Positions 44,754 through 50,292 of a stretch of 64,000 bases of DNA are shown here, one piece after another. This DNA comes from a bacterium (GTDB lineage: Bacteria > UBA8248): the NCBI GenBank assembly GCA_965213685.1, contig CBDBZY010000012.1:76593-140592 (forward strand). Direction: 5' to 3'. The position numbers and the translations under genes are program-made. The notes beneath the pieces are model-generated. The model had not been told where the DNA came from and ran no database searches. It saw only the letters and a program-made list of their open reading frames with translations. Each line of letters opens with the position of its first letter. The first letter of the stretch is position 1.

Positions 44754-46031
44754 TCACGCCCGCGCCTTCGCATCGGCGAGGCGCCAGACGGCGGAGGCGA
44801 GGACTTCCGCGCCCCGCACCATGTCCTCAAAGTGGGTGAACTCCTCCGGCGTGTGCGAGAGCCCCCCCACCGAGGGGATGAACACCATGCCCATCGGACA
44901 TATCGCCGCCATGCGGCAGGCGTCGTGCACCCCGCCGCTGGACAGGGCGAGGGCCGCGTGTCCCGTCTCCTCCGAGGCGCGGCGGAGCGCTTCTTGAATC
45001 CGGGCGGAGGCGGGGCATACGTCCAGCGTCCGGACGTCGGCGAGGCGTCCGCGCACGCCCCGCTCCTCCTCGATGTCGGCGAGCGCTTCTCTCATGCGCC
45101 CGAGGGCGCGCGTCATCGCCGCCCCGCTCCTGCTCCTGAGGTCGAAGGAGAGCCTGGCGCCTCCGGGCACGATGGACACCCACCCGGGGATGGCGGCCAT
45201 CTCGCCGAAGGTGATCGTCAGCCGCTGGGAGTCGGGCGCGCGCCTCGCCATGCGCTCCATCCGCACCATGAAGTCGGCCGCCGCCATGCCGGCGTCTTTG
45301 CGGTAGGGCATGGGCTGTCCGCCGGAGTGTGCCGCGACGCCCTCGAAGCGCACCTCGCCCCGCGTGTATCCCACCACCCTGTCCACGATGCCGATGGGCG
45401 TCTTGCGGGATTCGAGAACCGGGCCCTGCTCGATGTGCAGCTCCACGAACGCCTTGAGCGCACCCTCCGGAATGCGGCAGGAGCGCACGCGCGCTGGGTT
45501 TCCGCCCGCTTGCTCGATGGCCTCGTAGAGGGATTTCCCCGTGGGCGGATGAAGCGTTTTCCGCAAATCCCGCACGCCCAAGACGCCCGTGGCGGCGCTG
45601 CTGCCGAAGACCGTCATCCCGCAGGCGGATTCCTCCCCCACGAAGGCCGCCACCTCGACGGGGTGGTCGTGGGCGAGTCCCGCCTCGCCGATGCGCCGAA
45701 CCGCCTCGAGGGCGGTGAGAACGCCCGCCGCGCCGTCGAATCGTCCGCCCGGACTCTGGGAGTCGAGGTGCGAGCCGACCATCACGGCGGGCAGCCCCCG
45801 CGAGCGGCCCTCCTTTCGGCCATAGAGGTTGCCCACGGCGTCGACGCGCGTTTTCAGTCCCGCCGCCTTCATCCACCCCTCGACGAGGTCGCGCACCTCG
45901 TTGTAGGCCGGCGTGAACGCCACGCGGTCGAGCCCCGTCCTTCCGTATTGGCCGATTCGCGCCTGGGCGCGGAACTCGCGCCGCATGCGGGCGCGCCTCA
46001 CGCGCAGGGGCAACGCGCTCCGGGAGGGCAT
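44754..46031 (-). CDS. Zn-dependent amidohydrolase (allantoate amidohydrolase / N-carbamoyl-L-amino acid hydrolase, M20 family)
   Basis: DAVGNL, GSHLDS, GGRFDGAAGV, GEES, ELHIEQGPVLE, AHSGGQPM, SGGVHDA, SHTPEE. Confidence 0.9.
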   Translation of the reverse strand: MPSRSALPLRVRRARMRREFRAQARIGQYGRTGLDRVAFTPAYNEVRDLVEGWMKAAGLKTRVDAVGNLYGRKEGRSRGLPAVMVGSHLDSQSPGGRFDGAAGVLTALEAVRRIGEAGLAHDHPVEVAAFVGEESACGMTVFGSSAATGVLGVRDLRKTLHPPTGKSLYEAIEQAGGNPARVRSCRIPEGALKAFVELHIEQGPVLESRKTPIGIVDRVVGYTRGEVRFEGVAAHSGGQPMPYRKDAGMAAADFMVRMERMARRAPDSQRLTITFGEMAAIPGWVSIVPGGARLSFDLRSRSGAAMTRALGRMREALADIEEERGVRGRLADVRTLDVCPASARIQEALRRASEETGHAALALSSGGVHDACRMAAICPMGMVFIPSVGGLSHTPEEFTHFEDMVRGAEVLASAVWRLADAKARA

Positions 46032-46033
46032 GG

Positions 46034-46786
46034 CTAGAAGAGGTCCTTCGGCACGGGCACTTCCGCGTAGTCCTCGGGCCGCAGGGGATTGTCCGGCGAA
46101 ATCTCCAGCATGCCGAAATAGTGATAGGTTTGCCGCAAGTGCTGGAAGGCGTGCCCCAGGGCGAGGAGCATCAGCTCGTGCACGGTGATGGGGCCCATGT
46201 AGCTCGACACCTTGCGGGAGAGCGCGCCGCGGCCTTCGGCGAGAAAACCCGTGAGCCTGGCCTGTATCTCGTCGCCATAGGCGCAAATGTCCTCCGGGGT
46301 GCGGTAGTCGTTGGCCGTCGTTTCATACTGCCGCACCATCTGCTCGGTGTACTCTCCCGACTCGTGGGCCCGCATCACCAGCGCCGGGCGTTCGAAACTG
46401 TGCCAGGTGAGCTGGCGCAGCGTGCGGGGCCTGCCGGGGGAGACCCAGTCGAGCGTCTCCTGCGGAATCTGGCGAACCGCGCGGCGCAGGGCGTCAAACG
46501 CCATCTCGAAGTAGCGCCGCATCTGCTCTGCGGACAGCGGCCCAGCACCCCCCTCCGCAATGTCGAACGCGCGGCGCAGCGCGTCCACGTCATAGCCCAC
46601 GACGACGTCCCCGCCCCGCACGGAGACGGGCAGGGATTTGAGGCCCAGCGCCTGGAGCTCCGCCCGGGCGCCGGCGTCGTTCGTGCAGTCCCTGTTGATG
46701 ACCTCCAGGCCGTTCGACGAGAGAAACTCTCTCGTGAGGGCGCAGGTGTATCAGCCGTGCCGCGTATAGACTTTGACAGCTTCCAT
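46034..46786 (-). CDS. Predicted selenoprotein: glutaredoxin/NrdH-like domain (U-Y-T-C) fused to a DinB-superfamily domain, 250 aa
   Basis: RBS GGGGAGAG, then ATG at 46786 reading MEAVKVYTRHG-TGA(46753-46751)-YTCALTREFLSSNGLEVINRDC..ELQALGLKSLPVSVRGGDVVVGYD. This continues in frame into the DinB-like ORF (LTWH..GHAFQH). A SECIS-like hairpin follows the TGA. Confidence 0.8.
46717..46735 (-). promoter_or_regulatory. Putative bacterial SECIS element
   Basis: mRNA ACGAGAGA-GUU-UCUCUCGU, a perfect 8-bp stem. The loop starts with GU, 23 nt downstream of the in-frame UGA. Confidence 0.7.
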
Positions 46787-46953
46787 GGCTTCTCTCCCCG
46801 GTGAAGGACGGTGGTTGGGCGCATCATATCAAAGCGCCGGGTGCGGGGGAAACGGCGGGAGGCTATGGCAAACGGGGTGCGCGTGTTTTACTATCGCAGG
46901 CTGTCCGGCAATGGCGGCGCGCTCCGGCCCATTTCGCATAGCGAGGATTCTGG

Positions 46954-48480
46954 ATGCCCCGGTGGTTCGTGAAAGGCGACGTCGACGGCTTCTTCGGCCT
47001 GTGGATGGACAACCTCATCAACCTTCTTCTGATCGTGAGCCTCCTCAAAGGGGTGCTGGGCTTTCCCGATTCGCTTATTTTCGGGCGCGTGCTGCCCGCC
47101 GCCGCCCTGAGCATCCTGGGCGGCAACCTCTTCTACGCCTGGCAGGCGCGGCGCCTGGCCGCGCGCGAGGGTCGCGACGACGTGACGGCCGTGCCATACG
47201 GCATCAACACGGTGACGCTTTTCGCCTTCATCTTCTTCGTCATGCTGCCCGTCAAGCTCCAGACCGGAAGCGCCGAGGCGGCCTGGCGGGCGGGTCTGGC
47301 GGCCTGCTTCGTGAGCGGGGCGATCGAGACCATCGGCTCGCTGGTGGGAGAGCGGATCCGCCGGCTCGCCCCCAGAGCCGCCCTGCTCTCGGCGCTGGGC
47401 GGCATCGCGCTCACCTTCCTCGCCATGGATTTCGCCTTCCGCATATGGGAGAGGCCGCTCCTCTCTATGGTGCCGCTGGCCATCATCCTGCTCCAGTATT
47501 TTGGCGGATTCCGGCTGCCCCTCGGCCTGCCGGGCGGTCTCGTGGCGGTGGCGACGGGGGTGCTTCTCTCTCTCCTCATCGAGGGGGTTCCGGGCGACGT
47601 TCCCGCCCCCCTGGGCCTCGCACTCCCATCCCTGGCCACCGGCCCCTTGCTGGGCGCTCTTTTCGGCCCGCTCTCCCGGGATTTTCTCGCGATCTCCGTC
47701 CCCATGGGCCTCATGACGCTCGTGGGCAGCCTGATGGTCCTCGAGAGCGCGGCCGCGGCCGGGGACAGGTTCGAGGCGGGCAGCTCCCTGGCGGTGAACG
47801 GCGCGGGCTCCCTCCTCGCGGCCTGTCTGGGCAGCTGCTTTCCCACCACCCTGTATATCGGGCATCCGGGCTGGAAGGCCATGGGCGCGCGCGCCGGCTA
47901 CAGCGCCCTCAACGGGGCGGTGGTGACGCTCCTTTGCTGCACCGGCTCGATTGCGTCGCTCTCGAAGATCATTCCGGGCGAGGCGCTGTTCGCCCTCATG
48001 CTGTGGATAGGGCTGATGATGGTCACCCAGACGTTCCAGGCGGTTCCGGCGCGCCACGGCACGGCCGTGGCCATCGGGTTCATGCCCGCCATCGCCGCGT
48101 GGGGTCTTTTGATGGTGCAATCCTCCCTGCGGGCCGCGGGGACGAGCTTGTGGAAGGTGGGGGAGGAGGCCTTCGCCAGGGGGGGCTTTCACCTGAAGGG
48201 GATGATCGTCCTGGAGCGCGGCTTTATCTTCACGTCCATCCTCATCACGTCCATGGTGGCGAAGCTGGTGGACGGGGAGCCGAAGCAGGCGGCGGGCTGG
48301 GCGCTGGCCGCAGCGGCGCTGAGCTGGTTCGGGGTCATTCACGCCTGGCGCATCACGCCGGCGGGCGTCGTCAACTCCCTCGGCTGGGGGACGGCGCCCG
48401 GCATGGCGGCCGGTTATCTGCTCGTCGCGGGACTGTTCTTCGCGTTCTCGCTCACCTCGTTCGAGAAAAGGGCGCCTTAG
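46954..48480 (+). CDS. NCS2-like (nucleobase:cation symporter-related) permease
   Basis: GDVDGFFGL..DNL, TAVPYGIN, PRAALLSALGG, ESAAAAGD, FPTTLYIGHPGWKAMGARAGYS; many TM segments. Confidence 0.8.
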   Translation: MPRWFVKGDVDGFFGLWMDNLINLLLIVSLLKGVLGFPDSLIFGRVLPAAALSILGGNLFYAWQARRLAAREGRDDVTAVPYGINTVTLFAFIFFVMLPVKLQTGSAEAAWRAGLAACFVSGAIETIGSLVGERIRRLAPRAALLSALGGIALTFLAMDFAFRIWERPLLSMVPLAIILLQYFGGFRLPLGLPGGLVAVATGVLLSLLIEGVPGDVPAPLGLALPSLATGPLLGALFGPLSRDFLAISVPMGLMTLVGSLMVLESAAAAGDRFEAGSSLAVNGAGSLLAACLGSCFPTTLYIGHPGWKAMGARAGYSALNGAVVTLLCCTGSIASLSKIIPGEALFALMLWIGLMMVTQTFQAVPARHGTAVAIGFMPAIAAWGLLMVQSSLRAAGTSLWKVGEEAFARGGFHLKGMIVLERGFIFTSILITSMVAKLVDGEPKQAAGWALAAAALSWFGVIHAWRITPAGVVNSLGWGTAPGMAAGYLLVAGLFFAFSLTSFEKRAP

Positions 48481-48762
48481 ATCCCCGCCGCGCCCATAAC
48501 GCGCCCATACGCCCGTCATTAAAACGTCCGGCGGCGGGAGCGGGGGGAGACGCGCGAGGAGGAGGATGGGCGCACCGGTCGGGCGCGCGCGCCGGCCGGC
48601 TCTCGGGGGACGCCGCTTGCGCATTCCCCCGGCGTGTGTGTTTTGATGGTTGTCCGGGAAAGAAACCGGTTTCCGGAGGTTTGGGGAGGGGGAGGGGGCG
48701 CCCCATGGACGAGGCGGCGCGTCTGCCGGGAGGCGGGCGTTTTCCGCCTTCTGGGAAAGGGC

Positions 48763-50292
48763 ATGGACATGCGGAATGACTCCACGTTTGATCTGGTGGC
48801 CATCGGCGGCGGCGTCGGGGGCCTGGTGGCCTCGGTGGGCGCCGCGCAGCTGGGCGCCAGGGTCGCGCTCGTCGAGAAGACGAAGCTGGGCGGGGATTGC
48901 CTCAACTACGGGTGCGTGCCCTCGAAGGGGCTGATCCGCGCGGCGCGGCTGGCCGCGCAGGCGCGCTCGATGTCCGCCTTCGGGATTGACGCCGGGGAGG
49001 TGCGGGTCGATTTCCCGCGCGTCATGCGGCGGATGAAGGCCGCCCAGGCCCACATCGGCGCGCACGACGCGCCCGAGCGGTTCGAGGGCATGGGCATCGA
49101 GGTGATCTTCGGGGACGGGGCCTTCACCGGCCCGGACACGTTTCAGGCGGGGGGCAGGACCCTTCGCTCCCGGCGGTTTCTGCTGGCCACGGGAAGCTCG
49201 CCCTTCGTGCCGCCCATCGCCGGTCTCGAGGACGTGCCCTACCTCACGAACGAGACCGTTTTTGATCTGGAGCGGCTGCCCGGGCGCCTGGCGGTGCTGG
49301 GGGCGGGGCCCATCGGCCTGGAGTTGTCCCAGGCGTTTCAGCAGCTGGGCGCCGAGGTGGACGTGCTGCAAAGCGCGCCGAAGCTCCTGCCGAGGCTCGA
49401 CGCCGAGATGGCGGCGATTCTGGCCGAATCCCTGGGCGCGTCCGGCCTCAGGCTCCACTTCAACGTGAAGACGCAAAGGGTCGGGAGGCGCGGCGAGGAG
49501 ATTCTCATCGAGGCCGATACGCCGTCGGGCAGGAGGGAATGGGCGTGCGACCAGCTGCTCATCGCGACCGGCCGCTCGCCCAACGTGGGCGGCATGGACC
49601 TGGAGAAGGCGGGCGTGCGCTACACCCCGCGCGGCGTGGAGACGGACGCCTATCTCCAGACCGCGAATCCGCGCGTCTTCGCCGCCGGCGACGTCCGGGG
49701 GCAGTATCTGTTCACGCACATGGCGGAGTATGAAGCGGGCGTGGCGCTGCGCAACATGCTCTTTCGCGCCCCGTTCGGGGTGCCGCTGCCGTTTCTCCGG
49801 AAGAAGACGAACTATGACGCCGTGCCCTGGACGATCTACACGACGCCCGAGGCGGCCCACGTCGGCCTCGGCGAGGCGGAGGCCAGGGCGGCTTTGGGGG
49901 AGAACCGCGCGCAGGTGTTCCGCTTTCCGATGAACCGGGTGGATCGCGCCGTCCTCGACGGCGAGACGGAGGGCTGCTGCAAGGTGGTGTGCGACGAGAG
50001 GGGCAGGCTCGTGGGGGCCGACCTGGTCGGGCCCGCAGCGGGGGAGATACTGCACGAGTTCGCGCTGGCCGTCCGCAAGAAGATGCACGTCAGGGAGGTG
50101 GTGGACACGGTGCACGTGTACCCCACCCTGGCGCAGGTGAACAAGAGGGCGGCGGGCCGCTTCTACGCCGAGAAGCTCTTCACGCCCGCCTTCCGGAAGA
50201 AGATGCAGCGCCTGTTCGGTCTCCGGGGAAGCGTGGAGGTGGTGGACCCGGCCGACCTGGGCGGGCACGGCGCGGGGGAGCGGGGCCGCTAG
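48763..50292 (+). CDS. Class I pyridine nucleotide-disulfide oxidoreductase (dihydrolipoamide dehydrogenase/MerA-like)
   Basis: IGGGVGG, GGDCLNYGCVPSK, ATGS, GAGPIGLE, AAGDV, FTHMA, HVYPT; no C-terminal Cys-Cys. Confidence 0.88.
   Translation: MDMRNDSTFDLVAIGGGVGGLVASVGAAQLGARVALVEKTKLGGDCLNYGCVPSKGLIRAARLAAQARSMSAFGIDAGEVRVDFPRVMRRMKAAQAHIGAHDAPERFEGMGIEVIFGDGAFTGPDTFQAGGRTLRSRRFLLATGSSPFVPPIAGLEDVPYLTNETVFDLERLPGRLAVLGAGPIGLELSQAFQQLGAEVDVLQSAPKLLPRLDAEMAAILAESLGASGLRLHFNVKTQRVGRRGEEILIEADTPSGRREWACDQLLIATGRSPNVGGMDLEKAGVRYTPRGVETDAYLQTANPRVFAAGDVRGQYLFTHMAEYEAGVALRNMLFRAPFGVPLPFLRKKTNYDAVPWTIYTTPEAAHVGLGEAEARAALGENRAQVFRFPMNRVDRAVLDGETEGCCKVVCDERGRLVGADLVGPAAGEILHEFALAVRKKMHVREVVDTVHVYPTLAQVNKRAAGRFYAEKLFTPAFRKKMQRLFGLRGSVEVVDPADLGGHGAGERGR

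Follow-up and report, generated by a model that had tools for sequence, protein, structure and literature searches.

Is a TGA codon inside a bacterial reading frame the place where translation ends, or the place where selenocysteine (Sec) is inserted? This question is raised by a gene on the minus strand of a 64,000-nucleotide (nt) stretch of contig CBDBZY010000012.1, from a bacterium of the GTDB lineage UBA8248; the whole stretch is hereafter called the window. An earlier inspection of the letters, made without database searches and referred to here as the sequence-only reading, had proposed that this gene (46034..46786) encodes a hidden selenoprotein in which a glutaredoxin (Grx) is fused to a metalloenzyme of the DinB superfamily. 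Our comparative analysis makes us highly confident that this Grx-like-DinB protein of 250 predicted amino acids (aa) genuinely contains Sec, at codon 12, and is a two-domain selenoprotein.

The reading frame and its TGA codon

The list of open reading frames (ORFs) made for the window starts this gene at an internal GTG and gives it 195 aa (46034..46621, minus strand, as are all the features of the gene described below). Retranslation bore out what the sequence-only reading had noticed: the frame is open upstream of the GTG (46621) to one TGA, and an ATG with a good ribosome-binding site (RBS) precedes this TGA. The complete coding sequence (46034..46786) consists of the ATG (46784..46786), 10 codons, the TGA (46751..46753) and 238 codons, followed by a TAG stop (46034-46036). 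Read with TGA as U, it gives 250 residues with one U, at position 12. The RBS, GGAG (46794..46797), lies 7 nt 5' of the ATG. The N terminus of the product is MEAVKVYTRHG-U-YTC, and each of the motifs described earlier is present in the read-through protein: U12-Y-T-C15, a U-x-x-C redox motif with the TGA at the first Cys of CxxC; the cis-Pro motif L52-P53-V54 (Pro53 at 46628-46630); the GYD motif V62-V-G-Y-D66; and the DinB/YfiT His pattern, L-T-W-H129 and G-H212-A-F-Q-H216. The codon of Cys15, the putative resolving cysteine of UxxC, is TGC (46742..46744).

To what extent is this TGA conserved? From species-representative genomes, which carry the labels Nitrospinota, Tectomicrobia or unclassified metagenome-assembled genomes, we collected 31 homologous loci; one of them (L049) runs off the end of its contig. 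Each of the 30 full-length loci shows the ATG, 10 codons, the TGA and an open frame up to a normal stop. In the window and these 30 loci together, the ATG, the TGA and Cys15 are found in 31/31 sequences, and a GGAG/GAGG purine block precedes the ATG across the aligned upstream regions (n=31). Among the window and 30 loci, codons 4, 5, 7, 8, 9 and 11, which lie ahead of the TGA, vary only synonymously; Arg9, for example, is encoded by CGG, CGC, CGT, AGA or AGG. Hence, the peptide ahead of the TGA is under purifying selection in this frame. A survey of the phylum (51 genomes) found a match in 43 of them, and 39/39 full-length matches, in 38 genomes, hold exactly one TGA and no other stop.

The region is also covered by contigs of three samples from one study. 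Those of two samples match the window letter for letter and could be where it comes from; the third represents a variant strain that differs by 11 substitutions in 901 bases, with 46751-46753 unchanged. The contig of a further sequencing run covers 46000-46208 only, outside the TGA. TGC or TGT at 46751-46753, which the sequence-only reading had considered for the raw reads, does not appear in the independently assembled contigs, which keep TGA.

The gene is single-copy in the window's own genome. One relative carries a second full-length copy (G047:C20:672-1436, 319.7 bits), which is more divergent and likewise contains a single TGA. In many genomes of the phylum there are, in addition, stand-alone Grx-like frames of 66-101 aa with 1-2 in-frame TGA codons, which match the N-terminal domain of the family profile described below (for example, G014:C5:123022-123267, G018:C6:972379-972618 and G011:C1:3482570-3482812). 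These small frames are probably selenoproteins of the Grx-like/UXX-star type.

The public collections represent the family differently. A word-indexed search of 5.8 billion proteins gave 38 hits, including the window's own 195-aa entry, and some of them carry the name "DinB family protein." The 36 others are 147-233 aa long and start past the TGA column. The sole full-length hit (P0017, 250 aa) has W at the Sec column, the mark of a gene caller that applied code 4. The expectation that standard gene callers would truncate the gene was therefore correct, since Sec forms in the public collections searched start past the TGA, without the catalytic motif.

Sec and Cys forms and a hairpin in the coding sequence

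To place the gene in its family, we compared a profile built from 18 full-length sequences with 1.84 billion cluster representatives. This retrieved 1361 proteins at E <= 1e-3, of which 270 reached E <= 1e-10, and the column statistics given here are those of 150 listed representatives aligned to the profile. Column 12 holds Cys in 52 representatives and W in 1; it is empty in 85, whose first residue lies at one of columns 13-50, and the remaining 12 are fragments with a later start. Cys is thus found in 52/53 representatives covering the column, the remaining W being a TGA read by code 4, and no other residue occurs there among the 150. Full-length Cys forms read VYWQPG-C-(S/T)-S-C-L-R-T-K-E-F-L. 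Other key positions are conserved in the representatives that cover them: Cys15 (54/54), Pro53 (139/140), His129 (137/143), His212 (118/126) and His216 (122/126). Within the window's clade (18 sequences), the His triad is invariant.

The Cys-form Grx-DinB_2 fusions, annotated as "DinB family protein" or "glutaredoxin domain-containing protein," have the same two-domain architecture and the same conserved residues as the window protein, with C-(S/T)-S-C in 52 representatives. They belong to Atlas clusters in which 91-100% of the members have Glutaredoxin and 28-66% have DinB_2. They differ from the window's clade in having Cys for Sec, in the absence of a downstream hairpin and in sequence, with ~25-30% identity or less. 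None carries a functional name.

We also fetched 80 distant metagenome loci (L057-L136) with an alignment of six "truncated" clusters. Their first motif position is TGA in 67, TGC in 11 and TGT in 2, in a sample that leans to Sec forms, the query itself having been made from probable ones. Both kinds of homolog that the sequence-only reading had named as support were hence recovered: Cys is aligned to U12 in the 52 representatives and in 13 of the 80 distant loci, and the TGA is shared by the clade, the phylum matches and most of the distant loci.

The distribution of the two forms was mapped on a maximum-likelihood tree, quickly built from 147 rows (97 of Sec forms, 50 of Cys forms) with the Sec/Cys column masked; it omits L049, the 15 of 52 Cys representatives that are not full length and a distant locus of under 200 aa. 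No fewer than 10 switches between Sec and Cys are needed on this tree, and well-supported branches force 4 or more of these; shuffled labels average 42. The clade of the window, with 31 members that are all Sec forms, is monophyletic (SH-aLRT 100) and is set off by a long branch. Judging from these alignments, the gene is a member of a large family whose redox motif begins with predicted Sec in some branches and with Cys in others.

If the UGA is recoded, what directs the recoding? A selenocysteine insertion sequence (SECIS)-type hairpin, ACGAGAGA-GUU-UCUCUCGU (46717..46735), starts 15 nt past the UGA. It has an 8-bp stem and a 3-nt loop starting 23 nt past the UGA, with a minimum free energy (MFE) of -10.2 kcal/mol (z -2.74; 2/200 shuffles are equally stable). 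The consensus model of the bacterial SECIS (bSECIS), as laid out in the text of PMC13188914, has a loop of 3-9 nt, a stem of 4-16 bp, a spacing of 16-37 nt and an MFE <= -7.5 kcal/mol, and the loop has a G among its first two positions, mostly followed by G or U. The window hairpin agrees with the model as given there on all four constraints. At least 6/7 core pairs form in 31/31 clade members; one G-C pair becomes A-U in the four most divergent members, and another pair becomes G-U in seven. Two outer pairs (columns 20-43 and 21-42) were considered and dropped from the hairpin, being mostly unpaired in 19 sequences.

The hairpin goes with the Sec forms. In the 60 nt past the codon, 65/67 distant Sec forms have an unbroken stem of 7 bp or more, versus 0/13 Cys forms, whose longest stems are 3-6 bp; the two groups differ in stem length with a Mann-Whitney p of 1.9e-9, to be read knowing that the sequences are not independent. 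The MFE over 55 nt also differs (-14.6 kcal/mol for Sec versus -11.6 kcal/mol for Cys, p 0.006), in a comparison that is weaker than that of stem lengths and confounded by composition. The codons of the stem are near-frozen in the 67 Sec forms (AAA 49, GAG 65, TTT 51, CTT 49, TCG 63), and the Cys forms show mixed codons and other residues at these columns. Among the distant loci, a first type of hairpin (CGAAAGA-GUU-UCUUUCG), at the same position as that of the window, has 7/7 pairs in 48 loci, and a second type (CUCGGUCC-GUG-GGAUCGAG), about 14 nt further downstream, occurs in about 15. The first type overlies the K-E-F-L-S codons; both have a G-first triloop (GUU or GUG) and serve the same Sec position on different branches. 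These comparisons strongly support the prediction that recoding of UGA12 is directed by a hairpin within the coding sequence.

The Sec machinery and the alternatives to Sec

Recoding of this kind requires a dedicated machinery, and the sequence-only reading had pointed to selA, selB, selC and selD as the genes to look for. All four are present above their cut-offs in the genome. The tRNA-Sec scores 78.6 bits (cut-off 47), and ARAGORN gives it the anticodon TCA. The selA gene (564 bits, cut-off 268) adjoins selB (369.8 bits, cut-off 242), and both frames are open. The selD gene scores 172 bits over part of its length, above cut-off, and is itself of the Sec type (KAGG-U-GSKLG); it lies outside the window (G000:C31:about 101000-102300, minus strand). 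It is strongly supported, as far as gene content and conservation can tell, that UGA12 is recoded to Sec by the bacterial Sec system (tRNA-Sec, SelA, SelB and SelD).

The lineage seems rich in such proteins. In the text of BSepDB, three genomes of the GTDB phylum UBA8248 rank in the top ten of bacteria by number of selenoprotein genes (54, 50 and 48). They are labelled Nitrospinota, Nitrospinae or Nitrospinaceae at NCBI, and one of them is the source of a locus of our set (L039). This ranking fits a selenium-rich lineage. The window's own genome has 7.97 Mb in 71 contigs, with an estimated contamination of 3.68%, and the 22 listed genomes of the same genus have about 2.9-4.6 Mb; the assembly may be a composite or partly duplicated bin.

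Several observations weigh against recoding as described above and should temper it. The covariation in the hairpin is modest: one double-sided change is common to 4 related sequences, and 17 and 32 of 500 shuffles reach the observed values. In the count made on 19 sequences, 80% of the cells are paired versus 79.1% in shuffles, and a clean double change is found at pair 26-36 only. Conservation of the hairpin, taken alone, is confounded because the stem overlaps conserved codons (R/K-E-F-L-S). The whole 71 nt past the TGA fold no better than shuffles (z -0.93), the 23-nt hairpin alone standing out. An Rfam scan of 46500-46900 at E <= 10 gave four matches, all with E >= 1.2, far below gathering scores, and none to a SECIS. 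The contrast in hairpins between Sec and Cys forms rests on related sequences, among 80 loci retrieved with a query of probable Sec forms. Finally, selD is split into at least three frames in this assembly. In an alignment with a copy from the same genus (85% identical), each gap comes down to a surplus base in a G/C homopolymer run, and an intact selD with one TGA is present in 20/20 relatives searched. As all gaps sit at such runs and the relatives are intact, the fragmentation of selD is probably an indel error of the assembly.

What else could the TGA be? It could be read through as a residue other than Sec, by a near-cognate Trp or Cys tRNA or after a lineage-specific change of the code. 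One database entry (P0017 and P0053) does have W, showing that some pipelines applied code 4. Yet, TGA ends 13 of the 26 long frames with high GC at third codon positions within the window, and is therefore a stop codon in this genome and not a Trp codon; natural full-length homologs hold Cys, never Trp, at the column; the lineage has a complete Sec system, and the hairpin fits a SelB-type model. We consider a non-Sec read-through very improbable.

Alternatively, the TGA could be an ordinary stop, the real gene being the 195-aa DinB-only protein started at GTG 46621, behind an untranslated leader. This is exactly the form given by the ORF list and by public protein collections. However, a protein started there would lack the first strand and the redox motif of the thioredoxin fold, selection at the protein level acts on the 11 codons ahead of the TGA, the ATG and the RBS are conserved, and the Cys homologs read straight through the TGA column. 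Furthermore, the truncated database proteins begin at many different columns, from 13 to 50, as arbitrary picking of a start past a stop would give. In our assessment the chance that the TGA simply ends translation is extremely small.

An origin of the TGA from TGC or TGT, through an error of sequencing or assembly or through a recent nonsense mutation in a pseudogene, has a negligible probability: the same assembly does have homopolymer indels in selD, but the TGA is kept in 30/30 loci, in 39/39 matches from different assemblies and in the contig of the variant strain, the remaining frame is intact with one TGA, and a SECIS-type hairpin accompanies it. The conservation of the TGA across loci and genomes, its use as a terminator elsewhere and the unchanged variant-strain contig together argue for excluding sequencing error, pseudogenization and a Trp code, and we retain Sec insertion in what follows.

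Architecture, context and putative chemistry of the enzyme

The predicted protein has two domains. The N-terminal one, of residues 1 to about 75 (46562..46786), is a Grx-like thioredoxin-fold domain that matches Pfam Glutaredoxin (PF00462, residues 4-59, 31.6 bits, cut-off 22.9). The C-terminal one, of residues about 86-250 (46037..46531), is a DinB/YfiT-type four-helix-bundle domain that matches Pfam DinB_2 (PF12867, residues 93-219, 34.8 bits, cut-off 24.8) and holds the conserved triad of His129 (46400-46402), His212 (46151-46153) and His216 (46139-46141). An AlphaFold2 model made from an 18-row alignment (pLDDT 90.1, pTM 0.83) shows a beta-alpha-beta-alpha-beta-beta-alpha thioredoxin fold (4-73), a short linker of ~10 residues and a helical bundle (86-226), and places U12-x-x-C15 just before the helix 13-24. 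Foldseek searches of the PDB with the Grx half returned cGrx1 7c10 (TM 0.88 on target), BC3987 3zit and NrdH 4fiw/4hs1/1h75, with TM in the range 0.82-0.89. The DinB half matched DR0053 6iz2 (E 6.8e-5, TM 0.83 on target), YfiT 1rxq, 2p1a and 3dka, as well as the mycothiol-dependent maleylpyruvate isomerase (MDMPI) 2nsf and the mycothiol S-transferase (MST) of Mycobacterium tuberculosis, 8f5v. No PDB entry found by Foldseek spans both domains, the best query-normalized TM being 0.50. A profile search of the PDB also gave 7c10 as the best solved relative (E 1.7e-14), with its C-P-H-C aligned to U-Y-T-C.

The proposal of a DinB-superfamily half with a His triad agrees with these domain scores, four-helix-bundle matches and conserved His residues. 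The label "glutaredoxin/NrdH" stood in its first part, a Grx-like fold scoring above the Pfam cut-off, and not in its second: NrdH-redoxin TIGR02194 (33.5 versus 85.75 bits) and YruB TIGR02196 (41.9 versus 88.55 bits) are both missed at the NCBIfam cut-offs. For this reason, "Grx-like" is the correct label, rather than NrdH or YruB.

Two other cysteines, Cys34 (46685-46687) and Cys168 (46283-46285), one per domain, are invariant in the window's clade (18/18). Family-wide, their columns are mostly V/I and A, with Cys in just 2 and 7 of the 150 representatives. Going by this distribution, they could form a clade-specific inter-domain disulfide or be extra metal ligands.

How does the protein compare with known systems? 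Clostridial Grx1 (PDB 7c10, a Cys form) shares the fold and the position of the redox motif, and its natural form presumably contains Sec. Sec-containing Grx are single-domain proteins of about 80 aa, whereas the window protein adds a DinB domain of 165 residues on the same chain. In the text of PMC13188914, "Glutaredoxin (Grx) PF00462 UxxC" is counted as an experimentally verified selenoprotein family. With the DinB/YfiT (STL) superfamily, which includes BstA, mycothiol S-transferase and maleylpyruvate isomerase, the window protein has in common the four-helix bundle and the H...HxxxH metal triad; the solved members have 12-18% identity to it, and the matched structures come without a fused thioredoxin-fold domain. 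We found no selenocysteine reported for this superfamily in the papers searched. Several Grx-like (seleno)protein families of NCBIfam (Uxx-star NF041212, UXX-star 1-3, HUGP/GUXX-star and ArsC_rel_Se_1) show distant similarity in the Grx domain (E 1e-8 to 0.07), all under their curated cut-offs (35 versus 66, 19.7 versus 97, 18.4 versus 325, 17.2 versus 100 and 13.4 versus 72 bits). Judged from the family names alone, those of the Uxx-star type are small proteins with Sec near the C terminus. Glutathione S-transferases (GSTs) with a catalytic Cys have a similar general layout, a thioredoxin-fold domain with the nucleophile followed by an all-helical domain, and Foldseek listed several over the whole chain. 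They differ in overall structure (TM about 0.3, rmsd 10-16 A), and the helical domain of the window protein is a DinB bundle with a predicted metal site. The resemblance to GSTs is analogy, not homology.

Could the genomic context reveal the function? A co-oriented amidase of the hydantoinase/carbamoylase family (M20) lies 2 nt past the stop of the selenoprotein gene (44754..46031, minus strand; TIGR01879, 344.8 bits versus a cut-off of 204). It is found downstream in 26/31 loci and in 6/6 longer regions from relatives, including the most divergent genus. It falls under the NCBIfam cut-off of the allantoate amidohydrolase equivalog, and an identity as ErtE of ergothioneine catabolism was rejected (369.6 bits versus a cut-off of 520). 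Beyond it lies a branched-chain-type ABC importer, made of a binding protein, two permeases and two ATPases. Outside the window's clade the picture changes: among the 80 distant loci, with 600-nt flanks, no flanking gene is common to more than 11. Hence, the link with the amidase is clade-specific, no family-wide pathway is readable from the context, and the adjacency hints at a ureido or hydantoin substrate without defining the chemistry of the family.

On the other side of the gene, and divergent from it, 46954-48480 (plus strand) encodes a hydrophobic membrane protein of 508 aa, found with 70-87% identity in 20/31 related loci and with no match in Pfam (E <= 0.01) or NCBIfam (1e-5). It is followed by a class-I flavoprotein disulfide oxidoreductase with Pyr_redox_2 and dimerization domains (48634-50292, plus strand), which scores under every NCBIfam cut-off ("FAD-containing oxidoreductase" 493.6 versus 620 bits; MerA-like 365.8 versus 454). 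This reductase was considered as a family-level partner and rejected: it is syntenic in 3/3 regions of the same genus and in 0/3 regions of other genera.

The known chemistry of the superfamily allows a proposal for the reaction. The text of PMC10950700 (2024) describes DinB/STL enzymes such as BstA and MST as homodimeric four-helix-bundle metalloenzymes that move bacillithiol or mycothiol to electrophiles, with a metal held by conserved His; MST is there said to use two His and one Asp, and the assignment of the metal to a triad of His follows the same source. By analogy, Sec12, at the N terminus of helix 1, would be the attacking selenolate, Cys15 would resolve the intermediate as a selenenylsulfide, and the thiol system of the cell would re-reduce the Sec12-Cys15 selenenylsulfide. 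The His129/His212/His216 site would bind a divalent metal, and this metal would position or activate the second substrate, which may be a thiol, a thiol conjugate or another sulfur compound, as in the thiol S-transferases of the superfamily. In the window's clade, the enzyme would share a pathway with the amidase and the ABC importer, putatively transcribed with the selenoprotein gene. We thus tentatively propose that the two domains carry out between them a transferase/reductase reaction of the thiol-conjugate or disulfide type, a proposal in which we place limited confidence. Against any such functional assignment stands the lack of a neighbor conserved outside the clade, the most frequent one reaching at most 11/80 loci.

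A different reading of the two domains is also conceivable. Sec12 could be the fourth ligand of the metal held by the three His, a metal-selenolate as in Sec-containing formate dehydrogenases and [NiFeSe] hydrogenases, or the Grx domain could be only a redox switch or electron donor for an ordinary DinB thiol transferase. A pTM of 0.83 for a two-domain chain with a linker of ~10 residues would imply a fixed domain interface, and throughout the family conservation of the His triad goes together with that of U/CxxC. There are precedents for such ligands, as PMC13188914 states in its text that the Mo/W cofactor of FdhA has Sec as a ligand and that Sec is proposed to bind Ni in [NiFeSe] hydrogenases. 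Yet, U-x-x-C with a cis-Pro is the standard dithiol-type redox layout, and the invariance of Cys15 argues for selenenylsulfide cycling. Such roles for Sec12 or the Grx domain seem unlikely.

Returning to catalysis by the Grx-borne selenolate, one can conceive of a first Sec-dependent branch of DinB/STL enzymes, in which this selenolate replaces, or acts on, the low-molecular-weight thiol at the metal of the three His, in a family that is widespread yet uncurated. In the window's clade, the enzyme and the amidase would then act on an imported sulfur-bearing ureido or hydantoin compound. We advance this as a speculative idea of low probability.

Is the family itself new? Table 1 of PMC13188914 (2026) lists 119 prokaryotic selenoprotein families or subfamilies, several of them fusions; its Grx entry is a generic single-domain one, there is no DinB entry, and "DinB" occurs 0 times in the text. 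The GOS survey has a class "Grx-like, pfam00462 (e-value>0.001), UxxC" of 42 sequences, which may overlap with the Grx-DinB family, and no mention of DinB. BSepDB covers previously reported families only, and its text mentions neither Grx nor DinB. In NCBIfam release 20, no model is passed by the Sec or the Cys forms. We did not find a Sec-containing Grx-DinB fusion in the literature searched, and the supplementary tables of the surveys could still list one under "Grx" or "Grx-like." These searches are in line with the earlier statement that no characterized fusion of this kind was known. The Grx-DinB fusion selenoproteins thus appear, from their sequences, to form an undescribed, large, widely distributed and systematically mis-annotated family, in which Sec recoding and the UxxC fold are themselves ordinary.

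These results have consequences for annotation and for enzymology. In the public collections searched, the Sec forms are filed as N-terminally truncated "DinB family" or hypothetical proteins lacking the catalytic motif, and counts of selenoproteomes that rely on known families miss or mislabel the family because NCBIfam and the 119-family inventory have no Grx-DinB entry. DinB/STL enzymes use free low-molecular-weight thiols, and a built-in selenol/thiol redox domain suggests a different way to run such chemistry. The natural Sec/Cys pairs allow comparison of both forms, and at least 10 Sec/Cys changes with two hairpin solutions make the family a compact system for the origin of SECIS elements inside coding sequences. 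Not a new principle, the finding is useful for selenoprotein annotation and a testable lead for the enzymology of the DinB superfamily. If the idea of a Sec-dependent DinB/STL branch were true, it would be among the more widespread uncurated families of bacterial selenoproteins, present in soil, freshwater, marine and sponge-associated bacteria, with repeated switching between Sec and Cys and two types of SECIS within one family.

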